Source: a virus. From it: DNA of 64,000 nucleotides. The translations under genes were made by a program, and so were the position numbers. The notes beneath the pieces were generated by a model. That model did not search any database. It saw nothing but the letters and a program-made list of their open reading frames with translations, and was not told the origin of the DNA. Location: positions 18,757 through 82,756 of the IMG/VR virus record IMGVR_UViG_3300032006_000003; one strand, given 5' to 3'. Positions 13,244 to 40,811 of this stretch are shown here, piece after piece (the stretch's first letter is position 1; the number at the start of each line of letters is the position of its first letter).

Positions 13244-14547
13244 AACTTCTTTGTCAATAGAAAATCTCTAAACCATTGTGCCGTACTCTGTTCTTGTGCT
13301 TTTCTCACAGTTTTTTCTACCTCCTTCTCATCTAATAAAATATCTTCTGGTAATTCCTTCTCCTTATCAAGATCACCCCCTCTTACTAAAGCGTCATTAT
13401 TCTGAAGATTAAATCCTTTTTCCATTGATTGTACATATCCTCCTATTGAAGCTGCTGCTTCTAATGGTGGTTCAACTACACTTTCTGAATCTTGTTTATC
13501 TCTTCGTCTTTTTTCTTGTACTTTATTAACGAAGTCATTTTGTTTTACATCTGTATTTAAAGGCTTATCACCTTTTCGTTCAATATACTTTGGTATTTTA
13601 TCACCCGTTCCTTGACGAGGTTGAACAACTGTTAACGTATGTGGTGCGCCTCCGCCAACTGTATCAGCTTTCTCCATCGCTTGAAAATTATTACCACTCT
13701 GGGCTGGCATTTCTAAAGTGGCTCCTGATTTAATATATCCTTTCTGTTTTTTTGGTATTTGCTGCGCCCCTACCTTTTCATCTGCATCATTCATTTCAGC
13801 CCCAGCCCGTCCTGATTCCATTAATCCCGCCATCCCCATATTATGAGCAACTGGATTAGTAGGTACGCTGTTCTCTGTTTTAGGCGTGTCTTCTGATCCT
13901 TCTCCTTGTAAAGAATCAGCTGGACGTAATCGTTGATGTGGGTTTAAACTATAGTCATCGTAATGCGAAGGAGCATTATGATTCTTTTTAAGTTCGGTTC
14001 GAGCAAATTGTACTAGGTCATAGACAAAAGATTTATCGAGGTTTTGTACCGTTGCGTGAGAATGGTCTGGTGTTGTACTCATACCAACACTACTCGTTCC
14101 CATCCCGGTCGTGATCACCCCCTTTCGTCGATTAGATTTGATTTCAGTATATGGTTCCCCATATGCCTTGTCAAGGGATTTAGTAGGGGAAAAGTCCCTA
14201 AGAAATGCATCGACTCTCTCAATACCACTTTTCTCTTTAACCTTCTTTTTATCATTATCAAAGGCTTCATCTGCATCCTCAGTACTTGTAAAAACAATAT
14301 CATCATCTAAGTCTTTTCGTAACTTCTTTTTCTTTGGAAACGTTGAACCGTATGTCGTTGTTGAAACATCCGCAGATGTAAACCCTCCAATGGCTCCGCC
14401 GCCTCCGTCCCCTTCTTTCATAAAATCAATAAATTTTTCATAGCCCGATGCGTGGGCAGCTTGTGAAACCTCCTCTGCTTTTTTACGTGAATTAAACGGA
14501 CCCTTACTTCCCCAATACCATCCATCACTCTTCTTACTAATCGGCAT
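13240..14547 (-). CDS. Putative head-associated/internal protein
   Basis: 435 aa directly after the portal; N-terminal MPISKKSDGWYWGSKG..ASGY; many LDK/MEK motifs. Confidence 0.6.
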   Translation of the reverse strand: MPISKKSDGWYWGSKGPFNSRKKAEEVSQAAHASGYEKFIDFMKEGDGGGGAIGGFTSADVSTTTYGSTFPKKKKLRKDLDDDIVFTSTEDADEAFDNDKKKVKEKSGIERVDAFLRDFSPTKSLDKAYGEPYTEIKSNRRKGVITTGMGTSSVGMSTTPDHSHATVQNLDKSFVYDLVQFARTELKKNHNAPSHYDDYSLNPHQRLRPADSLQGEGSEDTPKTENSVPTNPVAHNMGMAGLMESGRAGAEMNDADEKVGAQQIPKKQKGYIKSGATLEMPAQSGNNFQAMEKADTVGGGAPHTLTVVQPRQGTGDKIPKYIERKGDKPLNTDVKQNDFVNKVQEKRRRDKQDSESVVEPPLEAAASIGGYVQSMEKGFNLQNNDALVRGGDLDKEKELPEDILLDEKEVEKTVRKAQEQSTAQWFRDFLLTKKL

Positions 14548-16534
14548 TGTCTACTTCCTTATCTACTTCCTCTCTAGTATTACCGACTTGAGAAGGGTTA
14601 TAACTAATCTTAGGAGTATCTATAGTATTCTTAAAGGTTGCTTTTTCTACCCCTAGAATACCCGCACTTCCTAATGTAGCTGTATAATCTACCCCTTCAT
14701 TTACAAACCATAATTGTTTACCATCAGAAGTCATATCTTTTAGAATAGGGGCAACATAACCTCGACCAGTTAAGTCTTCAATCCATGACTTATTCATTAA
14801 GGTTAATTCATTGTTCTTATTGCGTCCTTCAGCGAACTCATCAATATCTCTTTCCTCGAAAGGAGATTTGTCATGCCAATCAGGAGTTCGTCCTGCGAAG
14901 CGTCCACCAAACTTCTTTGCATCTTTTCCTAATGACATATTCTGTAAAGGTATCTGTGGGGCAGGCTCTGATCCGGGTCCTTCACCACCTCCCGGTGCGG
15001 CTCCTGTATTACCGGGGGCTGGATTAACTCCTGTCATTCCCGGTACATTAGCTTGTTGTTGGGCTAATTGGGCTTCCATAGCTTCTTCTTGCATCCTCAT
15101 TTGCTGTACGCCCAATGCCATTTGTTCCCCTTGCATCTCCGCCATTGGAACAGCTTGACCGCCAATAATAAATTCTGCCTGATCTAGTGGTACATCATCC
15201 TCTTTAAGAGAGACTTGATAACCTAATTGTAAGTACATAGCGGCTACTTGCGCCCTTTGCTGGGCAAAGCTAATGCGAGTAGCTTCTGCTTTCTCTTCAG
15301 GGTTTTCCAAATGTATTTCATAATCTGTTATGCCAAAAGCTTCAAGAATTAAAGGGAAGACTTTTTCATGGAAGATTCGTTGATCTCCTTCTACTACACG
15401 ACTCATAACAACTAACTGTTGAGTCTGTGTTGATAATCCACCGAATGCTTCTGGTGCGCCTTGCCATGCTGGAGTTACACCCCACATAGCTGCAATACGT
15501 TCTCGTATTTCATTACGTACTGGAAGATAATCCATCTCTTGTAAAGTATGGAATAGTCTAAGTAGTTCTACTCTACCCCTTTGATTCCTAGAAGAGACAG
15601 CAACCATCGGTACATAGTTAGGGTCTTGCCGTGTCTGAGCCGTAATGTTTTCACGTTCTCGTCGCAGACTTTCAGGATCGTCTGTATAGACCATCATCAT
15701 TGCCGCAGGCATTTTTCTCTCAAAGAAATAACGAAATAGGTTTTTATCCATACCAATTAAGGTTAATGCTTTTTCAAAGATTGTTAGGATAGGACTCCAT
15801 CCATATGTTTCTGAAGGAGTAAATTTAGAACTATGAACTATTTCGGCATCGAACATATAAATGTGCTTATTCCGATGATAGTACTTATACATGACAGGGC
15901 GAAGATCGACTTCACAATCTTCTTCTTGGCAGTTTCCGGGTTCCTCATGGACTTCTTCTCTGTGTATTGGACACATAAAATGTGCGTTCTTAGGTAAGCC
16001 AGCTGCGTCAAGATCGAATTCGACAAGGGCTGGATTAAGTCTTCGGACTTCTTTAACTTTTGATCTGATGGTTCCATCATCGCCTGCCTTATACTCTTTA
16101 GCTAAGTATAAAAATCCGTCATCAATAGAATTTATATCGAAATGAAACTGTCTTAATACTTCTTCAAAGCTTTGATCAAATACATTACAGTCATCTAAGA
16201 AAGCTTTTAATCTATCTAACTGTTCTGTATCAGGGTCTTCGACTGTGGGTTTAAAGATTATCCCCCTACGAAAAACCTCATTAGTTATATGTTGAAGTGG
16301 TCCTCTAATCTCTTCTACTGAAAAAGCTACCATCTGTAAGTCCATTACCAATTGTTGGCGATACGCCATTTGGTGACGTACCCATGTATTAACAATATGA
16401 TCAAGACCTATAGTTGGTGCTTGTCCTATATCCCCTGCCGATTTCATTAAATCTAATTGATTTAATTGATTAGTTAGCTGAACCATTTGGTCAGCCATAT
16501 GGGGGACTTCAGGTAAGTATTCTGATAATCTCAT
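14537..16534 (-). CDS. Portal protein
   Basis: 665 aa; YGWSPI, NLFRYF and ERIAAMWGVTP portal-type motifs; low-complexity C-terminal extension. Confidence 0.85.
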   Translation of the reverse strand: MRLSEYLPEVPHMADQMVQLTNQLNQLDLMKSAGDIGQAPTIGLDHIVNTWVRHQMAYRQQLVMDLQMVAFSVEEIRGPLQHITNEVFRRGIIFKPTVEDPDTEQLDRLKAFLDDCNVFDQSFEEVLRQFHFDINSIDDGFLYLAKEYKAGDDGTIRSKVKEVRRLNPALVEFDLDAAGLPKNAHFMCPIHREEVHEEPGNCQEEDCEVDLRPVMYKYYHRNKHIYMFDAEIVHSSKFTPSETYGWSPILTIFEKALTLIGMDKNLFRYFFERKMPAAMMMVYTDDPESLRRERENITAQTRQDPNYVPMVAVSSRNQRGRVELLRLFHTLQEMDYLPVRNEIRERIAAMWGVTPAWQGAPEAFGGLSTQTQQLVVMSRVVEGDQRIFHEKVFPLILEAFGITDYEIHLENPEEKAEATRISFAQQRAQVAAMYLQLGYQVSLKEDDVPLDQAEFIIGGQAVPMAEMQGEQMALGVQQMRMQEEAMEAQLAQQQANVPGMTGVNPAPGNTGAAPGGGEGPGSEPAPQIPLQNMSLGKDAKKFGGRFAGRTPDWHDKSPFEERDIDEFAEGRNKNNELTLMNKSWIEDLTGRGYVAPILKDMTSDGKQLWFVNEGVDYTATLGSAGILGVEKATFKNTIDTPKISYNPSQVGNTREEVDKEVDNAD

Positions 16535-16537
16535 ACA

Positions 16538-16981
16538 CTATTCCCTCTCGGTTAAATTAGTCATATCTGACATTGAAACCAGTTTAACAATATTATTCAT
16601 AGCTTTTTCTTTTAGTTCATAATCTTCTGATCTTTGAACCTTACGAATTGTTATAGCATTCGTTTCTTTTAGATCAGCAATTTCTTGTCGTAACTGGATA
16701 ATTGTATCATCTTTCTCCTGTGTTACATCTTCTAGTAGTCCTTCTTCTCCTTCAAAGGATGCATTTTGAAGTACACCCATTCTGGCTGCTTCTCGTATTA
16801 ACGAGATAAAAGCCCCCTCAGTTAAAATTGTTACTGCGGGATTATCATCTTCGATATCATCATCAGGACCTACTTGGGTTAAAGCCTCGTGCCATGTATC
16901 CAAAATCCGCCATGTTGATGTTGTATCATCCCTATGAGCAACATACTGCTGTTCTCGTCCACGTAAAATATTACCTAACAT
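16538..16981 (-). CDS. Hypothetical protein
   Basis: 147-aa ORF; GAGGT SD; AGTATAATA motif upstream. Confidence 0.6.
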   Translation of the reverse strand: MLGNILRGREQQYVAHRDDTTSTWRILDTWHEALTQVGPDDDIEDDNPAVTILTEGAFISLIREAARMGVLQNASFEGEEGLLEDVTQEKDDTIIQLRQEIADLKETNAITIRKVQRSEDYELKEKAMNNIVKLVSMSDMTNLTERE

Positions 16982-17007
16982 ACTTACCTCTACTTTATTC
17001 TATTATA

Positions 17008-17238
17008 CTACTTGCTTAAAGCTTTCTCCAATTTACCCGGAGCAAACCCCGCAATCATATCTGTTCCTATAACTGTAACTGGTGTAACTCTAAAACCCAT
17101 CCGTACTAAATCTTCTGCGTAATCAGCATTTTCTGAAATATTATATTCAGTAAATTCATGTCCGTTCTTTTTCAACCAAGACTTGGTTGCTGTACAAGGA
17201 CCTCAACCACTACTCGTGAATACTTTAATATCAGCCAC
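17008..17238 (-). CDS. Selenocysteine-containing glutaredoxin/NrdH-like redoxin (UGPC active site); not in ORF track
   Basis: GTG start after GGAGG; MADIKVFTSSG-U(TGA 17205-17203)-GPCTATKSWLKKNGHEFTEYNISENADYAEDLVRMGFRVTPVTVIGTDMIAGFAPGKLEKALSK; NrdH-type cis-Pro (TPV) and GF motifs. Confidence 0.85.
17173..17189 (-). promoter_or_regulatory. Putative bacterial-type SECIS hairpin
   Basis: CAACCA-AGTCT-TGGTTG perfect stem starting 13 nt after the in-frame TGA; GU in the apical loop. Confidence 0.7.
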
Positions 17239-17341
17239 CTTCCCTCCTTTGTTTACGTTCACAAACATAACATATCTTATGCCCTTTCTTAATACTTAGT
17301 TTAACACCACATTTACATTTTGACCAATTACGTCTAGCCAT
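17231..17341 (-). CDS. Small basic Cys-rich peptide (36 aa); not in ORF track
   Basis: MARRNWSKCKCGVKLSIKKGHKICYVCERKQRREGG; GGAG SD; overlaps the start of the redoxin. Confidence 0.55.
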   Translation of the reverse strand: MARRNWSKCKCGVKLSIKKGHKICYVCERKQRREGG

Positions 17342-17441
17342 TTATCACTCCTATTATTCCTACTCCTACTAATCCTATAATTGATATGAGAACTAATAAT
17401 TGTATTACTAGCCCCCATAACTCTGGGTTCTTCCACCACAT
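17334..17441 (-). CDS. Single-TM micropeptide (35 aa); not in ORF track
   Basis: MWWKNPELWGLVIQLLVLISIIGLVGVGIIGVING; AAGGTGA SD. Confidence 0.5.
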   Translation of the reverse strand: MWWKNPELWGLVIQLLVLISIIGLVGVGIIGVING

Positions 17442-17451
17442 ATTCTCACCT

Positions 17452-18879
17452 TTATTCGTTAGTAACCGTTACTGTCGGTGCGCCAGTAAGAACCTCTACG
17501 TTGTCACTAACATTCCAGTTAGCTGCGGTTACGCTCTGATTAATCTTAAACTCCTTAGTTGCAAATCCGTCTGAAGCACCAGCGTTACCACCACCACCTA
17601 TCTCGTTAAGCTGAATAGTTAGGGTTCCAATCTTCATACGGTCGAAGGAACAAGAGCCTCCTTCAGTATACAAATTGCTCAGAATCAGCTTATCTATTTT
17701 TCCATTAACAGCGGATGTAGGAGCATCTATATGTATGCGGTCATATGTACCGCCTGAAGTTACCATTGCTTCTGCCTGATGATGACCTCCGCCAACTGCT
17801 CGCATTCTGGAAGTCCCCGGAGTCTGGTTAATACTTTGACCATCTGAGGCATTTCCAATTATGTTAATGGTGTGTGCTGTTATGTTGTCAAAGTACATAG
17901 TTGTACACCGTGACTTTTCAATTAGCATTTCACCTACCTCTAGGAATGTACTTGTCTCACCATTACCACTCTTTACTGTTCCACCAATCAATACCGCAGT
18001 CGCACTAGCGGCTGTTCCATTAAGAGAAGTATGTGCAGAAGATGGTACTGCACCTCCAGTAAATACAGTTCCTACTGTTACATTCTCAATTTTAATCTCT
18101 CTTACGGGAGTCGAACCCATAACAACTCTTAACGTGTTGTCTTCCTTATATTCTTGCCTCCAAGCCATTGCCTGTTCCAATGTGGGATCAGGGTTTTGAG
18201 CAGGGGCGGCGTATATGCCTGAGTCACCGTTTGTGAAGCTTCTGTCAGCCAAAACTGTCTCATTCACCACGACTCCAGTTCCAGCAGTACCTCCGATTGC
18301 GAGAAGTCCTATTGCCATCTGTGGACTGAATCCCATCATTCTTAGGAATGAATATGGAGACATCAGTATTTTAAATGTCGTCTTCCATTTTGCCGATTCA
18401 TTATTAGCATATTCAATCTTTTCCAATACCCAATTTCGCCAGACCGTAATTTTTTTGTATAGAGTAATCGGAGATCGTAGAATTGCTTTTGGAGCCGTTC
18501 TAAAGTTATTTAAGTGTAGCAATAGTCCAAATAGGATTAAACCTGATGAAACTCCTATAGTAGGAATTAAATTAGCTTGTAGAAATAATACTTGAGTATA
18601 TAACTCATTTGCTAATCCCATTGAGATATAAGGAGTAATTGCTGGGATTGGATTAATATAAGATACAAATAACCCTAGGCCCCCTAGCAGTACGAGTAAA
18701 GCTGTATTAATGGCTCCCACCACAGTACTAATCCCTTTTAAAGGAATTTTAATAGAAGGCAAATTAACTTTAGGCATATCCAAACGTATCATTGGCAATG
18801 ATGCTTTCGGCAATCTAAAACTGATTTTAGGCATATTAAGTGTTGGAATTGTTAATTTTCGTAAAAAACGTTTAAACAT
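17452..18879 (-). CDS. Multi-TM membrane protein with large C-terminal beta-rich domain
   Basis: Start ATG 18879 after GGAGG; Pro/Lys repeats, about three hydrophobic segments, Gly/Thr/Ser-rich C-terminus. Confidence 0.65.
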   Translation of the reverse strand: MFKRFLRKLTIPTLNMPKISFRLPKASLPMIRLDMPKVNLPSIKIPLKGISTVVGAINTALLVLLGGLGLFVSYINPIPAITPYISMGLANELYTQVLFLQANLIPTIGVSSGLILFGLLLHLNNFRTAPKAILRSPITLYKKITVWRNWVLEKIEYANNESAKWKTTFKILMSPYSFLRMMGFSPQMAIGLLAIGGTAGTGVVVNETVLADRSFTNGDSGIYAAPAQNPDPTLEQAMAWRQEYKEDNTLRVVMGSTPVREIKIENVTVGTVFTGGAVPSSAHTSLNGTAASATAVLIGGTVKSGNGETSTFLEVGEMLIEKSRCTTMYFDNITAHTINIIGNASDGQSINQTPGTSRMRAVGGGHHQAEAMVTSGGTYDRIHIDAPTSAVNGKIDKLILSNLYTEGGSCSFDRMKIGTLTIQLNEIGGGGNAGASDGFATKEFKINQSVTAANWNVSDNVEVLTGAPTVTVTNE

Positions 18880-19197: not shown

Positions 19198-21036
19198 TTA
19201 TGCTATGACACATACACTAAAACCGCAGTTTTTACATGTCTCACACCCTGAATCAGCTACTATATAAGGTGAATCACAACATGGCTCATTCATTGGAGAG
19301 TCTTGTGTACCTTTAACTAGTACTTCTTTCTCTCGACTTCCTGCCCTATACACAGTAATTCCTTTACATTGTTCTCGCCACGCCAACATATATGTATCGT
19401 ATACATCCTCAACTGTTGCTTCTGTAGGCATATTAATAGTTTTTGATATACCTGAATCTATGTGAGGCTGGAAGAATGCTTGCATTAATACATGGTCAGC
19501 AGCTGAGATTTCAGGAGCCGTAATATATATCTTTTTAATATCGTCAGGTACTTCATCTCTATCCTGTAAGGATTCTCCTTTAGCTAAAGCGTTCATTAAC
19601 TCTTCAGAATAAAACCCTCGATCACGGGCTTCCTTCTCAAAATATTCATTAGTATATCGTAAAGTCTTGCCTTCTAGTATATTTTGCTTTTCCCATGCTA
19701 AAGCGAATGTAGGCTCAATTCCTGATGAACAGTTAGCAATCATAGAAATAGTTCCCGTTGGGGCGATAGTCATACGACACGCATTTCTATATACCTCTGT
19801 AATTGGATGAAAATTACTCTGTTCAAAAGCTGGAAAAGGTCCTCGTTTAACTGCAAGATCGAGAGATGCTTGATCAGCAATCTCTTGAATATATCTTATA
19901 AGAGATTGCCCAATTTTTCTCGCTTCTAATGAATTATATGGAACCCTAAGTTGTATTAATAAATCAGCGAAACCCATTATACCTACACCAATCTTTCGAG
20001 TAGCTTTTGTCATCTTCTCAATAGCAGGCGTAGCATAATGATTAGCGTCAATAACATTATCTAGAAAGTTTACAGATAACTGCGTAACTCTTTTTAAGCC
20101 TTCCCAATCAATTTTATCTTCCCATTTTTCAGTCCATTCATCCTGATAAAATTTTGCTATATTAATTGAACCTAAGTTGCAAGATTCATTTGGTAATAGT
20201 GGTTGTTCACCACATGGATTTGTAGCAATCATTTGACCGAACTCTTTCTTAACATGATTATCCGCATTTACTTTATCTAGAAAAATCATTCCCGGCTCAC
20301 CATTTTTCCATGCCCCTTCACATATCTTTTTAAATACGTATCGTGCTGATATAGTATCAACCATATGCTTTGTCTGTGGATCAATTAACCCATATGACAG
20401 GTCATACTCAACCATTTTCATAAACTGAGTATCAACGCCAACACTAATATTGAAATTGTGTATATCACCTTCACTAGATTTAGCGTCGATAAATTCAAGA
20501 ATGTCGGGATGATAGACAGACATAACAGCCATATTCGCTCCATCACGTTTACCTCCCTGTGTAATCATGGACGAAACTCTTGAAAGTGTTTTTAATACTT
20601 CAATTGGTCCACAAGCAACACCATGTGTAGATTTAATTTTGGCTCCTTTAGGACGGAGTTTGGATAATGAAAATCCTGTTCCACCCCCAAATTTCTGTAC
20701 CATTGCGGAATCTGTAGCGGCTTGCATAATACCTTCCATACTATCTTCTAAAGGGATTACAAAACAGGCAGACAACGTACCTTGTTCTGTTCCTGCATTC
20801 ATTAATGTAGGCGAATTTGGAATAAATTCAAAATTTGACATCATATGATAAAAATCTAATTCAAGCATAGTTTTCTCAACAGGTAACGTAAGGTACTGAT
20901 TTTCTATATCAGCAACTGCTTTTGCTACCCTTTTAAATAAACCATCAGCGTCTTCAACAGGCTCACTTTTTTCATTCTTTAAAAAATATCTGTGTCCTAA
21001 TACCGTTGCTGCCTGCGGTGAAACTGTTGTTGTCAT
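19198..21036 (-). CDS. nrdJ: Class II (adenosylcobalamin-dependent) ribonucleotide reductase
   Basis: NSPTLMNAG, TNPCGEQPL, TIAPTGTIS, SKTIN and KGITVYR motifs; C-terminal Cys cluster; no beta subunit in window. Confidence 0.9.
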   Translation of the reverse strand: MTTTVSPQAATVLGHRYFLKNEKSEPVEDADGLFKRVAKAVADIENQYLTLPVEKTMLELDFYHMMSNFEFIPNSPTLMNAGTEQGTLSACFVIPLEDSMEGIMQAATDSAMVQKFGGGTGFSLSKLRPKGAKIKSTHGVACGPIEVLKTLSRVSSMITQGGKRDGANMAVMSVYHPDILEFIDAKSSEGDIHNFNISVGVDTQFMKMVEYDLSYGLIDPQTKHMVDTISARYVFKKICEGAWKNGEPGMIFLDKVNADNHVKKEFGQMIATNPCGEQPLLPNESCNLGSINIAKFYQDEWTEKWEDKIDWEGLKRVTQLSVNFLDNVIDANHYATPAIEKMTKATRKIGVGIMGFADLLIQLRVPYNSLEARKIGQSLIRYIQEIADQASLDLAVKRGPFPAFEQSNFHPITEVYRNACRMTIAPTGTISMIANCSSGIEPTFALAWEKQNILEGKTLRYTNEYFEKEARDRGFYSEELMNALAKGESLQDRDEVPDDIKKIYITAPEISAADHVLMQAFFQPHIDSGISKTINMPTEATVEDVYDTYMLAWREQCKGITVYRAGSREKEVLVKGTQDSPMNEPCCDSPYIVADSGCETCKNCGFSVCVIA

Positions 21037-21045
21037 GAAAACCTC

Positions 21046-22737
21046 CTATCCTCTATAGTTACAATAAATGCAAAATTTGCGTTCCGGGACCCAAAATGAT
21101 GGTCGGCACTCTCCTTCATCACACTTTGGGTTAGGGCAATCCTTCATTGTTAAATCTGAATTGATTGACCCACTATAATTCATTGGCGGGGAATGTGTCA
21201 ATAACTCATCTCCATCTTGCTTATCTGTAACTGTAGATTGGACATCAAAGTTCATTTCTGCTGCTGGACTCGCATCGCCTGCTATATCATCTGCCCATAT
21301 TTGAATGTTTCCAACATGGACTACCTGATTCCACGTATGTTCATGGGCTGCCTGTAAAGCCATAGCAATCGAAAAGAATGCGTCCCCATGTCCCATCGGA
21401 GTTTCAGGTGCTTTTAATTCATTATTTACTGATAAAATTTGTTGTTTTTGTCGTTCATCTTTTAGGAGACTTACTCTATCTCCATGTACATATTGTTCAA
21501 AAATTTGTGCCATTGTGTTCTTTGCTTTTAATGTAAAATGCATAGGCCACCATGAATGGTCTAATCCTCTATCTTCTAGTTCGCCACGAGTATTATCTAT
21601 ATATCCTTTTGTTAAATCGTAATGTTCCGCTACCTCATTTAAATATTCAATTTGATCAGAGTAACTCCACCCATCTAACCATGATTGGTGTATTTGACGG
21701 GCTACCCCATTCTTTACACTAAAAATTACTAAGTGTGATGGGTGTCGTTTCTTTCCTACATCAAAGCCTGCAAATAACTGTTCATCTCTATCCACTTCAT
21801 ATCCTTTAGAGATAGGATAATTTTTTAAGTTTGCGTCTTCACATTTAGTAATATCATCATCTTCAAAATAAGCCTCTGTAGAAAAGTGTGGAATTAACAT
21901 GAACTCCGAAGCAAATGATTTAGGTCTGGCTCGTTGCTGTTGCAATAACCACTCTTCACTATATAGTTCAGGCATTAACACTCTTCTATCGGGGGCAGGG
22001 TCTAAAGCTGGAAGTACCCTAGATTTAAACCGATCATCATCTTGTAGCTTAGAAAGTAAGTCTCCCGGCATCATTGGAGTTCCTAATACAATAACAGGTA
22101 CTCCTTTCAATGGAATGAATAAACTCTCTGTAAGAAAGTGATCTTCGACTTTAGTAATCTGTGTAGCATTTAAGGGGTTCTCTGGGTCACGCATTACGTC
22201 ATCAGCTATTAAAGCCCCATTCACATGCATTCCACGTTTAAATGAAAATAGTCCTCCATGCATAATCTCAATCGGTTTATTATCTTTCATATACCGAAAC
22301 GAATAATCAGCCTTTGGATTCCTATTTGTAATCATATCCTTTAATAGGGGATTACGATTAACTGTCTTATTAATTTCTGAGATATGATACTGCGCCATTC
22401 CATCGCTATACGATAAATAAAGTACTGACATATCTCTAGTAGCCTGTAAGAGTCTCCAAATACTGAAGGCATGACCTAACACCGTAGATTTAAAATGGAA
22501 TCTAGGTAGTACAGCTACGTAATTTAAGTCTTCCTGTAAGCATTGTTCAATATCTTCAGCTACTACTCCTACATGCCAAGCCCTAAAATATTCAGGATGG
22601 TCAAATCCTTGTGACCAAATGTCTCTAAGAAACTCCCAAAAGCTTCCTTTAAATTGTGTACTTCCACCAGAGACTAACCCGTCAGCTAATTGGGAAAATG
22701 CATCAGTATAAGTAGTAACAGATTCTTTAGTAGTCAT
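21046..22737 (-). CDS. terL: Terminase large subunit
   Basis: PRFHFKST Walker A-like, IADD Walker B, GTP coupling motif, GFDVG nuclease motif, HGDAFFS. Confidence 0.9.
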   Translation of the reverse strand: MTTKESVTTYTDAFSQLADGLVSGGSTQFKGSFWEFLRDIWSQGFDHPEYFRAWHVGVVAEDIEQCLQEDLNYVAVLPRFHFKSTVLGHAFSIWRLLQATRDMSVLYLSYSDGMAQYHISEINKTVNRNPLLKDMITNRNPKADYSFRYMKDNKPIEIMHGGLFSFKRGMHVNGALIADDVMRDPENPLNATQITKVEDHFLTESLFIPLKGVPVIVLGTPMMPGDLLSKLQDDDRFKSRVLPALDPAPDRRVLMPELYSEEWLLQQQRARPKSFASEFMLIPHFSTEAYFEDDDITKCEDANLKNYPISKGYEVDRDEQLFAGFDVGKKRHPSHLVIFSVKNGVARQIHQSWLDGWSYSDQIEYLNEVAEHYDLTKGYIDNTRGELEDRGLDHSWWPMHFTLKAKNTMAQIFEQYVHGDRVSLLKDERQKQQILSVNNELKAPETPMGHGDAFFSIAMALQAAHEHTWNQVVHVGNIQIWADDIAGDASPAAEMNFDVQSTVTDKQDGDELLTHSPPMNYSGSINSDLTMKDCPNPKCDEGECRPSFWVPERKFCIYCNYRG

Positions 22738-32456: not shown

Positions 32457-32708
32457 TTACCTCCTTGTCGAAAAGACTTCTTCCATAAGGTTTCCTTCAT
32501 TATCTTCCCCATATACAGAACATGTCAAGTAGTTAGATGCCTGTATTCGGGCAATTAAGACAGCTTCTTTTAAATTTGTATGCTTTCCGAAGTCGGCAAT
32601 CTCAGATAAATCTGTCTCAGCTAAAACTCTATAGTAAGTAGGTGTAGGTGTCAAGAGGCTCTTTTTAATCAGCGATCCCCGTTGCCCACGCTTCATGTAA
32701 GGCATCAT
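32457..32708 (-). CDS. Hypothetical protein
   Basis: ORF; likely start at ATG 32708 or 32705 after GGAGG. Confidence 0.5.
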   Translation of the reverse strand: MMPYMKRGQRGSLIKKSLLTPTPTYYRVLAETDLSEIADFGKHTNLKEAVLIARIQASNYLTCSVYGEDNEGNLMEEVFSTRR

Positions 32709-33198
32709 TACCTCCAATTTTATTTTGAAGACTTTGACGTATTCGGTACGCTGAATCTTCAAGTTCATGAGAAATTTCTTCCATTGTTAATCCTTCTAAA
32801 CGTAAAAAGACAAATCGTTGTTCTTTTAATGTTAAATCATACTGGTTTAATACATCTGCTATTTCAAATCGTTCCTTATCATCAGCAGCTTGTAAAAGGT
32901 TTAATATCTTTGTTGGTATAACTTCAGCATCTGTAATCTGATCTAAGCTATCTGAAATTACTTGTCGTTGGGCTTTTGAAATTAATGTTCGTAATGTATT
33001 TACCATTGCTGTATGTAAATAAGTATGGAATAAAACTCCTTTATCTTCATTAAATCCTCGTGCTGCTTTAATAATTGCTATTCGTAACTCCTGTTCTAAA
33101 TCTCCGTGATCCATACCGATTACAAAAGTATTCTGTAATAAGCGGTGTATCTTAGGTTCCCATTGTTTAATTAGATCATCATTTATCTCAATTGTCAT
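32665..33198 (-). CDS. Sigma70-family (ECF-like) RNA polymerase sigma factor
   Basis: Region 2 DLEQE..KAARGFNEDKGVLFHTY; region 4 HTH LEGLTMEEIS. Confidence 0.8.
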   Translation of the reverse strand: MTIEINDDLIKQWEPKIHRLLQNTFVIGMDHGDLEQELRIAIIKAARGFNEDKGVLFHTYLHTAMVNTLRTLISKAQRQVISDSLDQITDAEVIPTKILNLLQAADDKERFEIADVLNQYDLTLKEQRFVFLRLEGLTMEEISHELEDSAYRIRQSLQNKIGGNDALHEAWATGIAD

Positions 33199-33572
33199 TA
33201 GCCATCCCTCCATCCTCTATAAGTACATGAACGACTACAATAAATATTCTTATAGCCGTATCTATAATTTTTTAATAATACATGTCGTTTACGATAAAAC
33301 TTAACATGGCAAAACGAACATTCTACTTCAATATTAGTGTATTTAAATCGACACGCATTAGAGCAGAACTTTCTATTGTACCCATGAAGTATACTACAAC
33401 CAGTACAGGTACGCAAATCTTTTTTAGCTTTTGGCACACATGTAATTAAATCATTTTTCTGAAGTATATAGGATACATATTGTTTACTAACTCCTACTGT
33501 TTTTGCAATATCAATAGAAGGTAATAAAGGATACTTCTTACGTAACCGTACAATCCTATTTTTAGCTTTCAT
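33198..33572 (-). CDS. HTH plus zinc-finger protein
   Basis: DIAKTVGVSKQYV HTH; CTGC, FCSNAC, CSFC and YCSRSC. Confidence 0.7.
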   Translation of the reverse strand: MKAKNRIVRLRKKYPLLPSIDIAKTVGVSKQYVSYILQKNDLITCVPKAKKDLRTCTGCSILHGYNRKFCSNACRFKYTNIEVECSFCHVKFYRKRHVLLKNYRYGYKNIYCSRSCTYRGWRDG

Positions 33573-40180: not shown

Positions 40181-40811
40181 TAACGCATACTCCTTGCTTG
40201 CTGTTGCTGTTGACGTTCCTCTATTGCTAGTTCAACGCCTAATATAACTGCGATATCCGTTTCTCCTAGTTCCTCTATCTTATCCCACGGAATACCTAAT
40301 CTCAACAATTTTAGTATTACCGTCCAATACTGAAATACTAAGCCCTCAGTTTGAGAAGTTCCTTGTACTCCCGCAAGAAAAACTAGGACTCGTCTTTTAA
40401 ATTGTCAATCTGTTCTAAACCTCCTGCTTCTGTATCATCTCCACCAAATGCTTTTGGTACGACTTCTTCCAAGGCTCCTCCTAATCGTTCATCAATTGAA
40501 AGTAGAAAACTTTCAGTCGTCTTTCCCCACGGAGCATCAACAATCATTTCTCGTAAACACATTCGTACATAGGCATCTCCATCAAAAGATGTTTGTCCAT
40601 CAGTTCCCCACTTAACCGCCTTTGAAAGAATTTGATTCCGTCTAGCCCATGAAAGCTTTTTAACTTGTACTTCAAATGTTTCTTTTGTATCCTCTATTGT
40701 AAGAGTCTGTGTTTCTGGTGTCGTTGTAATTTGGTAATTTTTAAAATCAAAGGGTTTCCCTATTTCCTGTGCTTTAAAATTTTCCTGTGCTGTTTGCTTT
40801 TCTTCTGCCAT
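40180..40811 (-). CDS. Tail assembly chaperone G (40383..40811) with -1 frameshift product GT extending to 40180
   Basis: Slippery T TTA AAA at 40401-40395; the -1 frame stays open to a TAA overlapping the tape-measure ATG. Confidence 0.8.

Follow-up and report, generated by a model that had tools for sequence, protein, structure and literature searches.

The locus described here raises the question of whether a bacterial virus can carry a selenoprotein gene, that is, whether an in-frame TGA in a small redoxin gene is decoded as selenocysteine (Sec) and not as a stop. The gene lies on the minus strand at 17008..17238 of the window, the 64,000-nucleotide (nt) stretch of DNA that was analyzed, corresponding to bases 18757–82756 of IMG/VR record IMGVR_UViG_3300032006_000003 (82,756 bp, rated complete by CheckV), and the source virus is an uncultured tailed phage from the sea. 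It comprises 76 codons followed by TAG, its translation, Pfam PF00462 match, AlphaFold2 model and fold matches all indicating a protein of the glutaredoxin/NrdH fold, and is referred to below as the UGPC redoxin gene, after the proposed active site of its product. The UGA is conserved among relatives and is followed by a hairpin under RNA-level constraint, in a genome where UGA elsewhere serves as an ordinary stop. These features of the sequence point to a phage-encoded selenoprotein, in which Sec would be inserted at the UGA with the machinery of the host, a reading to which we assign a probability of roughly 85%.

Direct reading of the minus strand agreed with the first-pass annotation in each element of the gene. 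The frame opens with GTG (17238..17236), preceded at a distance of 4 nt by the Shine–Dalgarno sequence AGGAGGG (17242..17248, minus strand), and closes after 76 sense codons with TAG (17010..17008). Its sole interruption is the TGA at codon 12 (17203..17205, minus strand), the proposed Sec codon, which occupies the first position of the CxxC motif, would give the active site S-G-U-G-P-C and aligns with Cys13 of PDB entry 7c10. The resolving Cys15 of U-G-P-C, encoded by TGT (17194..17196, minus strand), was invariant in 60 of 60 aligned sequences. Relatives start with ATG, GTG or TTG at the equivalent place, preceded by the same purine run. Gene calling at this locus under table 11 yielded merely a 55-amino-acid (aa) fragment (17008..17175), and 61 of 65 relatives in the protein database were likewise fragments, 54–61 aa in length, the five inspected beginning just past Cys15, in keeping with the earlier remark that standard gene callers miss this gene.

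Unbiased evidence on the TGA came from a search blind to the N-terminus, in which the C-terminal motif pattern G-[FY]-R-V-T-P-V-T was used alone. It returned 34 loci, 14 of them family members, and all 14 carried TGA, not TGT or TGC, at this codon. The remaining 20 loci were unrelated chance matches. A protein-guided scan of viral contigs recovered four relatives with 51–73% identity, each with TGA at the same codon, as had a fifth relative with only 38% identity. With a strict motif pattern, 21 viral and 43 metagenome contigs were retrieved, giving 49 unique coding sequences (CDS), and every CDS of this set that was complete within its contig stayed open to the normal full-length end. The family so assembled held about 50 distinct homologues with a frame open past the TGA, 38–78% identical to the window protein. 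When the synonymous sites of the Thr, Lys and Ser codons were left free, the TGA form of the pattern was found in 26 viral contigs, while the same pattern with TGY (Cys) as the first codon gave two matches, both in unrelated GC-rich sequence, so that no Cys form with the hairpin was found by this pattern.

The region 5′ of the TGA also behaved as coding sequence. Over the nine codons preceding it, the protein was conserved while the codons varied synonymously, with four codons in use for Thr and four for Ser, the latter including AGT versus TCN. Synonymous variation before the TGA, together with conservation of the protein, implies that both flanks of the TGA are translated in one frame.

Among the 65 database relatives, the sole Cys-type member was P0044 (ENA contig of 1,225 bp), with CIHC at the site. 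Over the C-terminal ∼54 residues it was 83–87% identical to Sec forms (L114, L124, and L126), but the N-terminal ∼21, which cover the hairpin-encoding stretch, were unrelated to theirs. P0044 looks like the product of an N-terminal module swap that took away the TGA and the hairpin together, to judge from the aligned proteins, and its existence fits the expectation for Sec/Cys pairs. A viral scan with P0044 residues 22–75 returned Sec forms only. A scan of genome contigs, with patterns that required Cys and were blind to TGA forms, returned Cys-type homologues only, 31–44% identical and mostly from Firmicutes.

A hairpin resembling a bacterial selenocysteine insertion sequence (SECIS) begins 13 nt after the TGA, exactly where it had been annotated, and its motif is present once in the window. 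It spans 17173..17189 (minus strand) and consists of a 6-bp stem, CAACCA (17189..17184) pairing with UGGUUG (17178..17173), closed by the loop AGUCU (17183..17179). The hairpin is encoded by codons A17-T18-K19-S20-W21-L22, and 19 nt separate its loop from the UGA. In the model for bacterial SECIS elements, the loop has 3–9 nt, the stem 4–16 bp, the UGA-to-loop distance is 16–37 nt and the minimum free energy (MFE) is ≤ –7.5 kcal/mol; a G is required in the first two loop positions, in most cases within N1-G-[G|U]-N-N2, where N1 pairs with N2 (PMC13188914). The window hairpin satisfied all four rules, with a 5-nt loop on a 6-bp stem, an A-G-U-C-U loop that fits the consensus and whose first and last bases can pair, a distance of 19 nt and an MFE of –12.6 kcal/mol, calculated for the UGA plus 45 nt. 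By itself, the hairpin is only mildly unusual, as a rule-obeying hairpin (at least six Watson–Crick pairs, with loop and spacing) follows 52 of the 2,814 TGA triplets of the genome. At this chance rate of 1.8%, the evidence lies in the conservation of the hairpin among relatives and not in the hairpin alone.

That conservation was marked at synonymous sites. In the 14 unbiased unique sequences, Thr18 was encoded by ACC in 14 of 14, Lys19 by AAG in 14 of 14, and Ser20 by TCT in 10 of 10, while Leu22 used only UUR codons. In the same sequences, invariant residues elsewhere were encoded by three to four different codons (Gly13, Pro14, Thr52, Pro53, and Gly64) or by two (Cys15). Nor do the frozen codons reflect general usage, since outside the hairpin ACC was the rarest Thr codon (21 of 277), and AAG and TCT made up 69 of 206 Lys and 48 of 203 Ser codons. 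Neither Thr18 nor Ser20 is a conserved residue in the Cys-type homologues of bacteria. The frozen synonymous sites, together with the lack of conservation of Thr18 and Ser20 in Cys-type homologues, indicate that it is the RNA, rather than the protein, that is constrained.

The stem itself was maintained across the family. In 48 distinct sequences, 96.5% of 288 cells were paired, versus 3.5–50.3% with slid partners. The outermost pair was U-A in 21 sequences, C-G in 17 and U-G in two, and its switch couples an Ala/Met replacement to a synonymous change of the Leu codon. The next pair was A-U in 26 and G-U in 20 sequences, and an inner C-G was replaced by U-G in two. Loop variants occurred on the same stem, namely AGAUG (Ser20→Met), AGGUG (Ser20→Val), and AGGCU (Ser20→Ala), all keeping G at loop position 2; their carriers were L097–L099, L111/L112, and L114/L118/L124–L126. 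Of these, the Met variant is plentiful: P0034, the truncated protein that belongs to it, occurs on 153 contigs.

Several observations weigh against the selenoprotein reading and temper its strength. The family was largely gathered by DNA patterns that required TGA and part of the hairpin, the 14-sequence subset alone being unbiased. Conservation of the hairpin, with its frozen synonymous sites, was borne out when relatives were compared, but the covariation that the first-pass annotation had also proposed to check was not significant on a tree from which the hairpin columns had been excluded (sign test p = 1, an underpowered comparison); it rested on a single pair, with one independent paired change on supported branches and six on all branches, and the outermost pair was a C/A mismatch in eight of the 48 sequences. 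The AGAUG loop deviates from the usual G-[G|U] rule. The energy rule (–7.5 kcal/mol for UGA plus 45 nt) was reached by only 30 of 48 family members, and in 40 of 48 the MFE structure contained the expected stem. For the window, the MFE of the hairpin on its own was –6.9 kcal/mol, and the stability of a 66-nt segment was not unusual (z = –0.59). Rfam gave nothing at gathering thresholds in the window, bacterial SECIS families included; since each of those families seems to be tied to certain genes, their silence says little. With E-values up to 10 allowed on 17120–17250, the only Rfam match was PK-HAV, a chance match. In a marine metatranscriptome (X20), a single contig of 266 nt matched 17262–17527, just upstream of the redoxin gene, with three differences; the gene itself lay outside it, and the contig is neutral as to its expression. 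Lastly, the reading assumes that the host possesses SelABCD.

The protein obtained by reading through the TGA is a redoxin by sequence and by predicted structure. It passed the gathering cut-off of Pfam Glutaredoxin PF00462 (46.2 bits versus 22.9, E = 5e-12). Its best NCBIfam match was NrdH (TIGR02194; 60 bits, E = 2e-16), under the curated cut-off of 85.75, followed by other families whose cut-offs were not reached either: YruB (TIGR02196; 59.1 bits versus 88.55), the Uxx-star (seleno)protein families NF041212 (43.3 versus 66), NF041211 (35.1 versus 100), and NF047338 (29.1 versus 97), and the PRK10329 equivalog (37.2 versus 131). An AlphaFold2 model based on a 60-sequence alignment had a confidence (pLDDT) of 96.1 and placed residue 12 between a strand (residues 4–8) and a helix (13–24), the canonical place of the attacking Cys. 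Foldseek ranked NrdH proteins first (4hs1 of M. tuberculosis, 1h75 of E. coli, and 4fiw of C. glutamicum), followed by the glutaredoxin cGrx1 (7c10), which was also the closest PDB entry at the sequence level (E = 5.5e-10, residues 3–74). In the alignments, residue 12 falls opposite the leading Cys of the CxxC motif of 11 Cys-type homologues and opposite cGrx1 position 13.

These two groups of proteins are also among the closest known systems. In cGrx1 of Clostridium (Alkaliphilus) oremlandii, which is natively a selenoprotein, Sec occupies position 13, and the protein has been studied through U13C constructs (PMC4479559); native selenoproteins of the cGrx1 type bear a U(or C)PXC motif (PMC7642778). 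The phage redoxin has the same fold as cGrx1 (template-modeling score 0.90–0.91, root-mean-square deviation 1.0) and its proposed Sec at the aligned first CxxC position (7c10 and 7c12). The two differ in active site, UPHC in cGrx1 versus the thioredoxin-like UGPC in the phage, with an identity of about 35%, and in setting, cGrx1 being cell-encoded and linked to a selenoprotein MsrA, whereas the redoxin is virus-encoded and linked to a class II ribonucleotide reductase (RNR). With NrdH, it shares a length of ∼75 aa, a motif [IV]-x-G-[FY]-x-P-x-x-L at the place where NrdH has WSGFRP, and linkage to an RNR. It departs from NrdH in having the proposed Sec where NrdH has its first Cys, and in its partner, a class II NrdJ versus the class Ib NrdEF. 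The usual NrdH active site has V/M-Q between the two Cys, where the phage redoxin has GP. Cys NrdH-like redoxins were common in cultured phages, being found in 347 GenBank phage records, all with <60% identity.

Four explanations other than Sec insertion were weighed against these data. A sequencing or assembly error at the TGA, or a nonsense mutation private to this phage, has a practically negligible chance of being the correct explanation. Each of 19 public DNA runs contained half or more of the words sampled from the redoxin kilobase; record 10 of X3, which stems from another study, was identical to the window over its 815 nt (16629–17443, 0 differences), and contigs of X8 and X14, likewise from other studies, spanned the gene with differences elsewhere, none of those listed falling at 17203–17205. 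Retention of the TGA in these independent assemblies, and its presence in every family member found, refute an artifact and confirm the authenticity of the codon on which the first-pass annotation depended. General recoding of UGA of the table 4 or 25 type, in the host or late in infection, would agree with a redoxin frame that is open when TGA is read as tryptophan (W), and stop-codon recoding is known in phages. We nevertheless consider it extremely unlikely. Among the 84 greedy open reading frames (ORFs) of the full genome, TAA ended 45, TAG 26 and TGA 13, the last including the ORFs ending at 857 and 25638 that had earlier been cited against genome-wide recoding, and when 12 of the 13 TGA-ended ORFs were extended, the next in-frame stop came within 0–17 codons, several of them showing ATGA stop/start overlaps. 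Coding density was normal under table 11, and no tRNA gene, hence no suppressor tRNA, was found in the whole phage genome. A coding-strand scan for TGA with open flanks and a downstream hairpin returned only the redoxin site and one at window position 40407, and the redoxin TGA was the only case to combine open flanks, a hairpin and a recognizable gene. The site at 40407 (minus strand), with open frames of 9 and 74 codons and a predicted hairpin of –6.5 kcal/mol, lies between annotated ORFs and is probably due to chance.

If the gene were instead broken or truncated, UGA would terminate translation and leave an 11-residue peptide and/or a C-terminal fragment started internally, with the hairpin serving as a regulatory element or attenuator. 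Many relatives do have an ATG directly after Cys15, from which gene callers derive products of 54–61 aa, and truncation is probably what happens under selenium shortage; the window gene, however, has ACA and not ATG after Cys15, and its next start is a TTG at codon 22. Both the nine codons that precede the TGA and the G-P-C that follows it bear the mark of protein-level purifying selection across the 38–78% identity range, and together they would build the first strand and the beginning of the first helix in the confidently modeled fold. A pseudogene is also unlikely to persist intact in about 50 distinct sequences, which makes this explanation very unlikely. What the UGA and hairpin insert might alternatively be a residue other than Sec, either Cys delivered by a tRNA(Sec)-like tRNA with SelB, or the product of read-through by a near-cognate tRNA-Trp or tRNA-Cys, with the hairpin as stimulator. 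The inserted residue cannot be told from sequence analysis, SelB-dependent insertion of Cys exists, and the AGAUG variant misfits the loop rule usual for SelB. Three full-length homologues in ENA gene calls (P0007, P0009, and P0014, on short contigs) even carry W at the TGA codon (G-W-G-P-C), yet this apparently reflects table-4 gene calling, which hides the Sec codon in protein databases, and is not evidence of Trp. With W or G at the attacking position, WGPC or GGPC would be devoid of a nucleophile, and 11 of 11 aligned Cys-type homologues keep Cys there. Cys could be obtained simply by TGT or TGC with no hairpin, yet TGA was found in 14 of 14 unbiased members, next to a hairpin that satisfies the SECIS rules and in a phage that has no tRNA of its own. 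Insertion of a residue other than Sec is accordingly judged unlikely. We consider Sec the most likely residue at the UGA, SelB the most likely factor to recognize the hairpin, and the RNR the most likely client of the redoxin.

Decoding would have to be provided by the host. The absence of Sec genes, earlier noted for the window, extended to the whole phage genome, in which tRNA-Sec, selA, selB, and selD were all absent; with no Sec genes in the phage, the Sec machinery must be the host's. Five related records had neither tRNA-Sec nor selB. The sole weak tRNA-Sec match among these relatives proved to be a tRNA-Tyr (GTA) of 88 nt (L127, 1496–1583, minus strand). L127 lies in G001, a complete related record of 85,063 bp with direct terminal repeats. 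The gene content supports a bacterial host, because the phage encodes a sigma-70 family factor and the relative G001 carries the 88-nt tRNA-Tyr. The factor is of the extracytoplasmic function type (32665..33213, minus strand; TIGR02937, 60.3 bits versus 42.9; PF04542, 36.2 bits), and, among the control genomes, matches to the sigma-70 Pfam family were confined to the 10 bacterial ones, the four archaeal genomes giving none. A tRNA-Tyr with a long arm is of the bacterial type. No close cultured relative of the phage was found: its terminase was 26% identical to that of Sinorhizobium phages, and the nearest RNR, at 43%, was in a Moorella phage.

The genome has a G+C content of 38%, and 78 of its 84 ORFs (greedy ORFs, full 82,756 bp) are on one strand. 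The redoxin gene shares the minus strand with a portal protein gene (14537..16534; PHROG 18178, E = 1.5e-44), which places the locus in the head module of a tailed phage, and with genes for a class II, adenosylcobalamin-dependent RNR, NrdJ, with a Cys-rich C-terminal tail (19198..21036) and the large terminase subunit (21046..22737; PHROG 38, E = 1.8e-26). NrdJ was assigned by TIGR02504 (NrdJ_Z, 668.5 bits versus a cut-off of 399.95) and by Pfam PF02867 and PF00317. Directly upstream of the redoxin gene, the ORF list includes a Cys-rich ORF of 36 codons (17231..17341, minus strand; CxC ... CxxC), which is kept in many related loci (tblastn, 48–91% identity) and had no family match in Pfam-like, NCBIfam or PHROG profiles.

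The gene order retained among relatives was terminase, nrdJ, a 502-aa protein, the 36-aa Cys-rich ORF, the redoxin, a 147-aa protein and the portal. Among 85 related loci, many of them duplicate or short, a portal homologue was found ∼600–760 nt from the redoxin gene in 67, and an RNR homologue at 61–2,419 nt in 32. In five of the loci (L043, L048, L050, L076, and L082), the RNR directly adjoins the redoxin gene; these lack the 502-aa gene, and the gap between redoxin and nrdJ is 61–265 nt. A few family members sit in other phage contexts, with tail-fiber, sigma-factor, HSP20, NUDIX or SET genes nearby. In L065 (7,077 bp), the redoxin gene has as neighbors an HSP20, two sigma-70-like factors and a tail-fiber protein that bears an endosialidase chaperone domain, while in L067 it is near NUDIX and SET domain proteins; L067 and L084 both lie outside the terminase–nrdJ–portal arrangement.

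Because of the fold and sequence matches and the conserved linkage to nrdJ, the redoxin is most likely an NrdH-like reductant, with a thioredoxin-type motif (UGPC), of the phage NrdJ, which it would presumably reduce. Cys-rich tails of the NrdJ type receive electrons from thioredoxin-type proteins. In the mechanism that we propose, the infected bacterium would own the Sec pathway (SelA, SelB, SelC, and SelD), and its SelB, with GTP and Sec-tRNA(Sec), would bind the hairpin 13 nt past the UGA and deliver Sec in place of release factor 2. The redoxin would thereby gain selenocysteine as the attacking residue of a U-G-P-C active site; in a cell short of selenium or of Sec machinery, only the 11-residue peptide would be made. 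The complete redoxin would re-reduce the B12-dependent class II RNR of the phage via the Cys-rich tail and would itself be recycled by a thioredoxin reductase of the host, so that the deoxynucleotide (dNTP) supply of the phage would be tied to selenium.

Beyond the selenoproteins of cells, a few viral genes that rely on host Sec decoding are known from animal viruses, where the glutathione peroxidases of molluscum contagiosum and fowlpox viruses are UGA-Sec genes dependent on the host machinery. These eukaryotic-virus selenoproteins have a eukaryotic SECIS and animal hosts, whereas the phage redoxin has a hairpin of the bacterial type inside the CDS. Among bacterial viruses, tRNA-Sec genes have been reported in huge wastewater phages and Sec proteins suggested for them, with no selenoprotein gene named (PMC10747093), which is the reverse of the redoxin phage, with its candidate selenoprotein gene and no tRNA-Sec. 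In the open full-text literature, to which the search was confined (supplements and subscription journals lay outside it), no account of any selenoprotein from a bacterial virus was found, consistent with the earlier impression that phage selenoproteins are little described. The words "phage" and "virus" were likewise absent from a 2026 review of the prokaryotic selenoproteome, from BSepDB and from deep-Sep. According to a survey of marine trace-element proteins, the families examined, bar three that are named, lack or nearly lack viral sequences. In the UGPC redoxin, the proposed mechanism and the protein fold are both familiar, and what is new is the kind of genome that carries them. On balance, we find it probable that the family represents a widespread lineage of marine tailed phages with a fixed Sec redoxin in a B12-dependent deoxynucleotide module, and that its members are the first selenoproteins to be described from bacterial viruses.

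For gene annotation, the consequence is that standard gene callers systematically break the UGPC redoxin gene. For work on Sec decoding, the compact 17-nt hairpin with its natural loop variants offers a ready series for studies of SelB recognition, and, if the redoxin is indeed a selenoprotein, the phage would bring along, in the hairpin, a ligand adapted to the SelB of its host. Replication of the phage would then depend on the Sec-decoding trait of the host and on the supply of selenium and cobalt. Since the host would have to be a Sec user, the Sec redoxin would be a marker of host range that can be read from sequence, and the Cys-type P0044, with its swapped N-terminal module, would mark an escape from Sec dependence. 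A common lineage of marine phages would be confined to Sec-decoding hosts, and the synthesis of viral DNA at sea would be tied to a pair of trace elements, selenium through the redoxin and cobalt through NrdJ.

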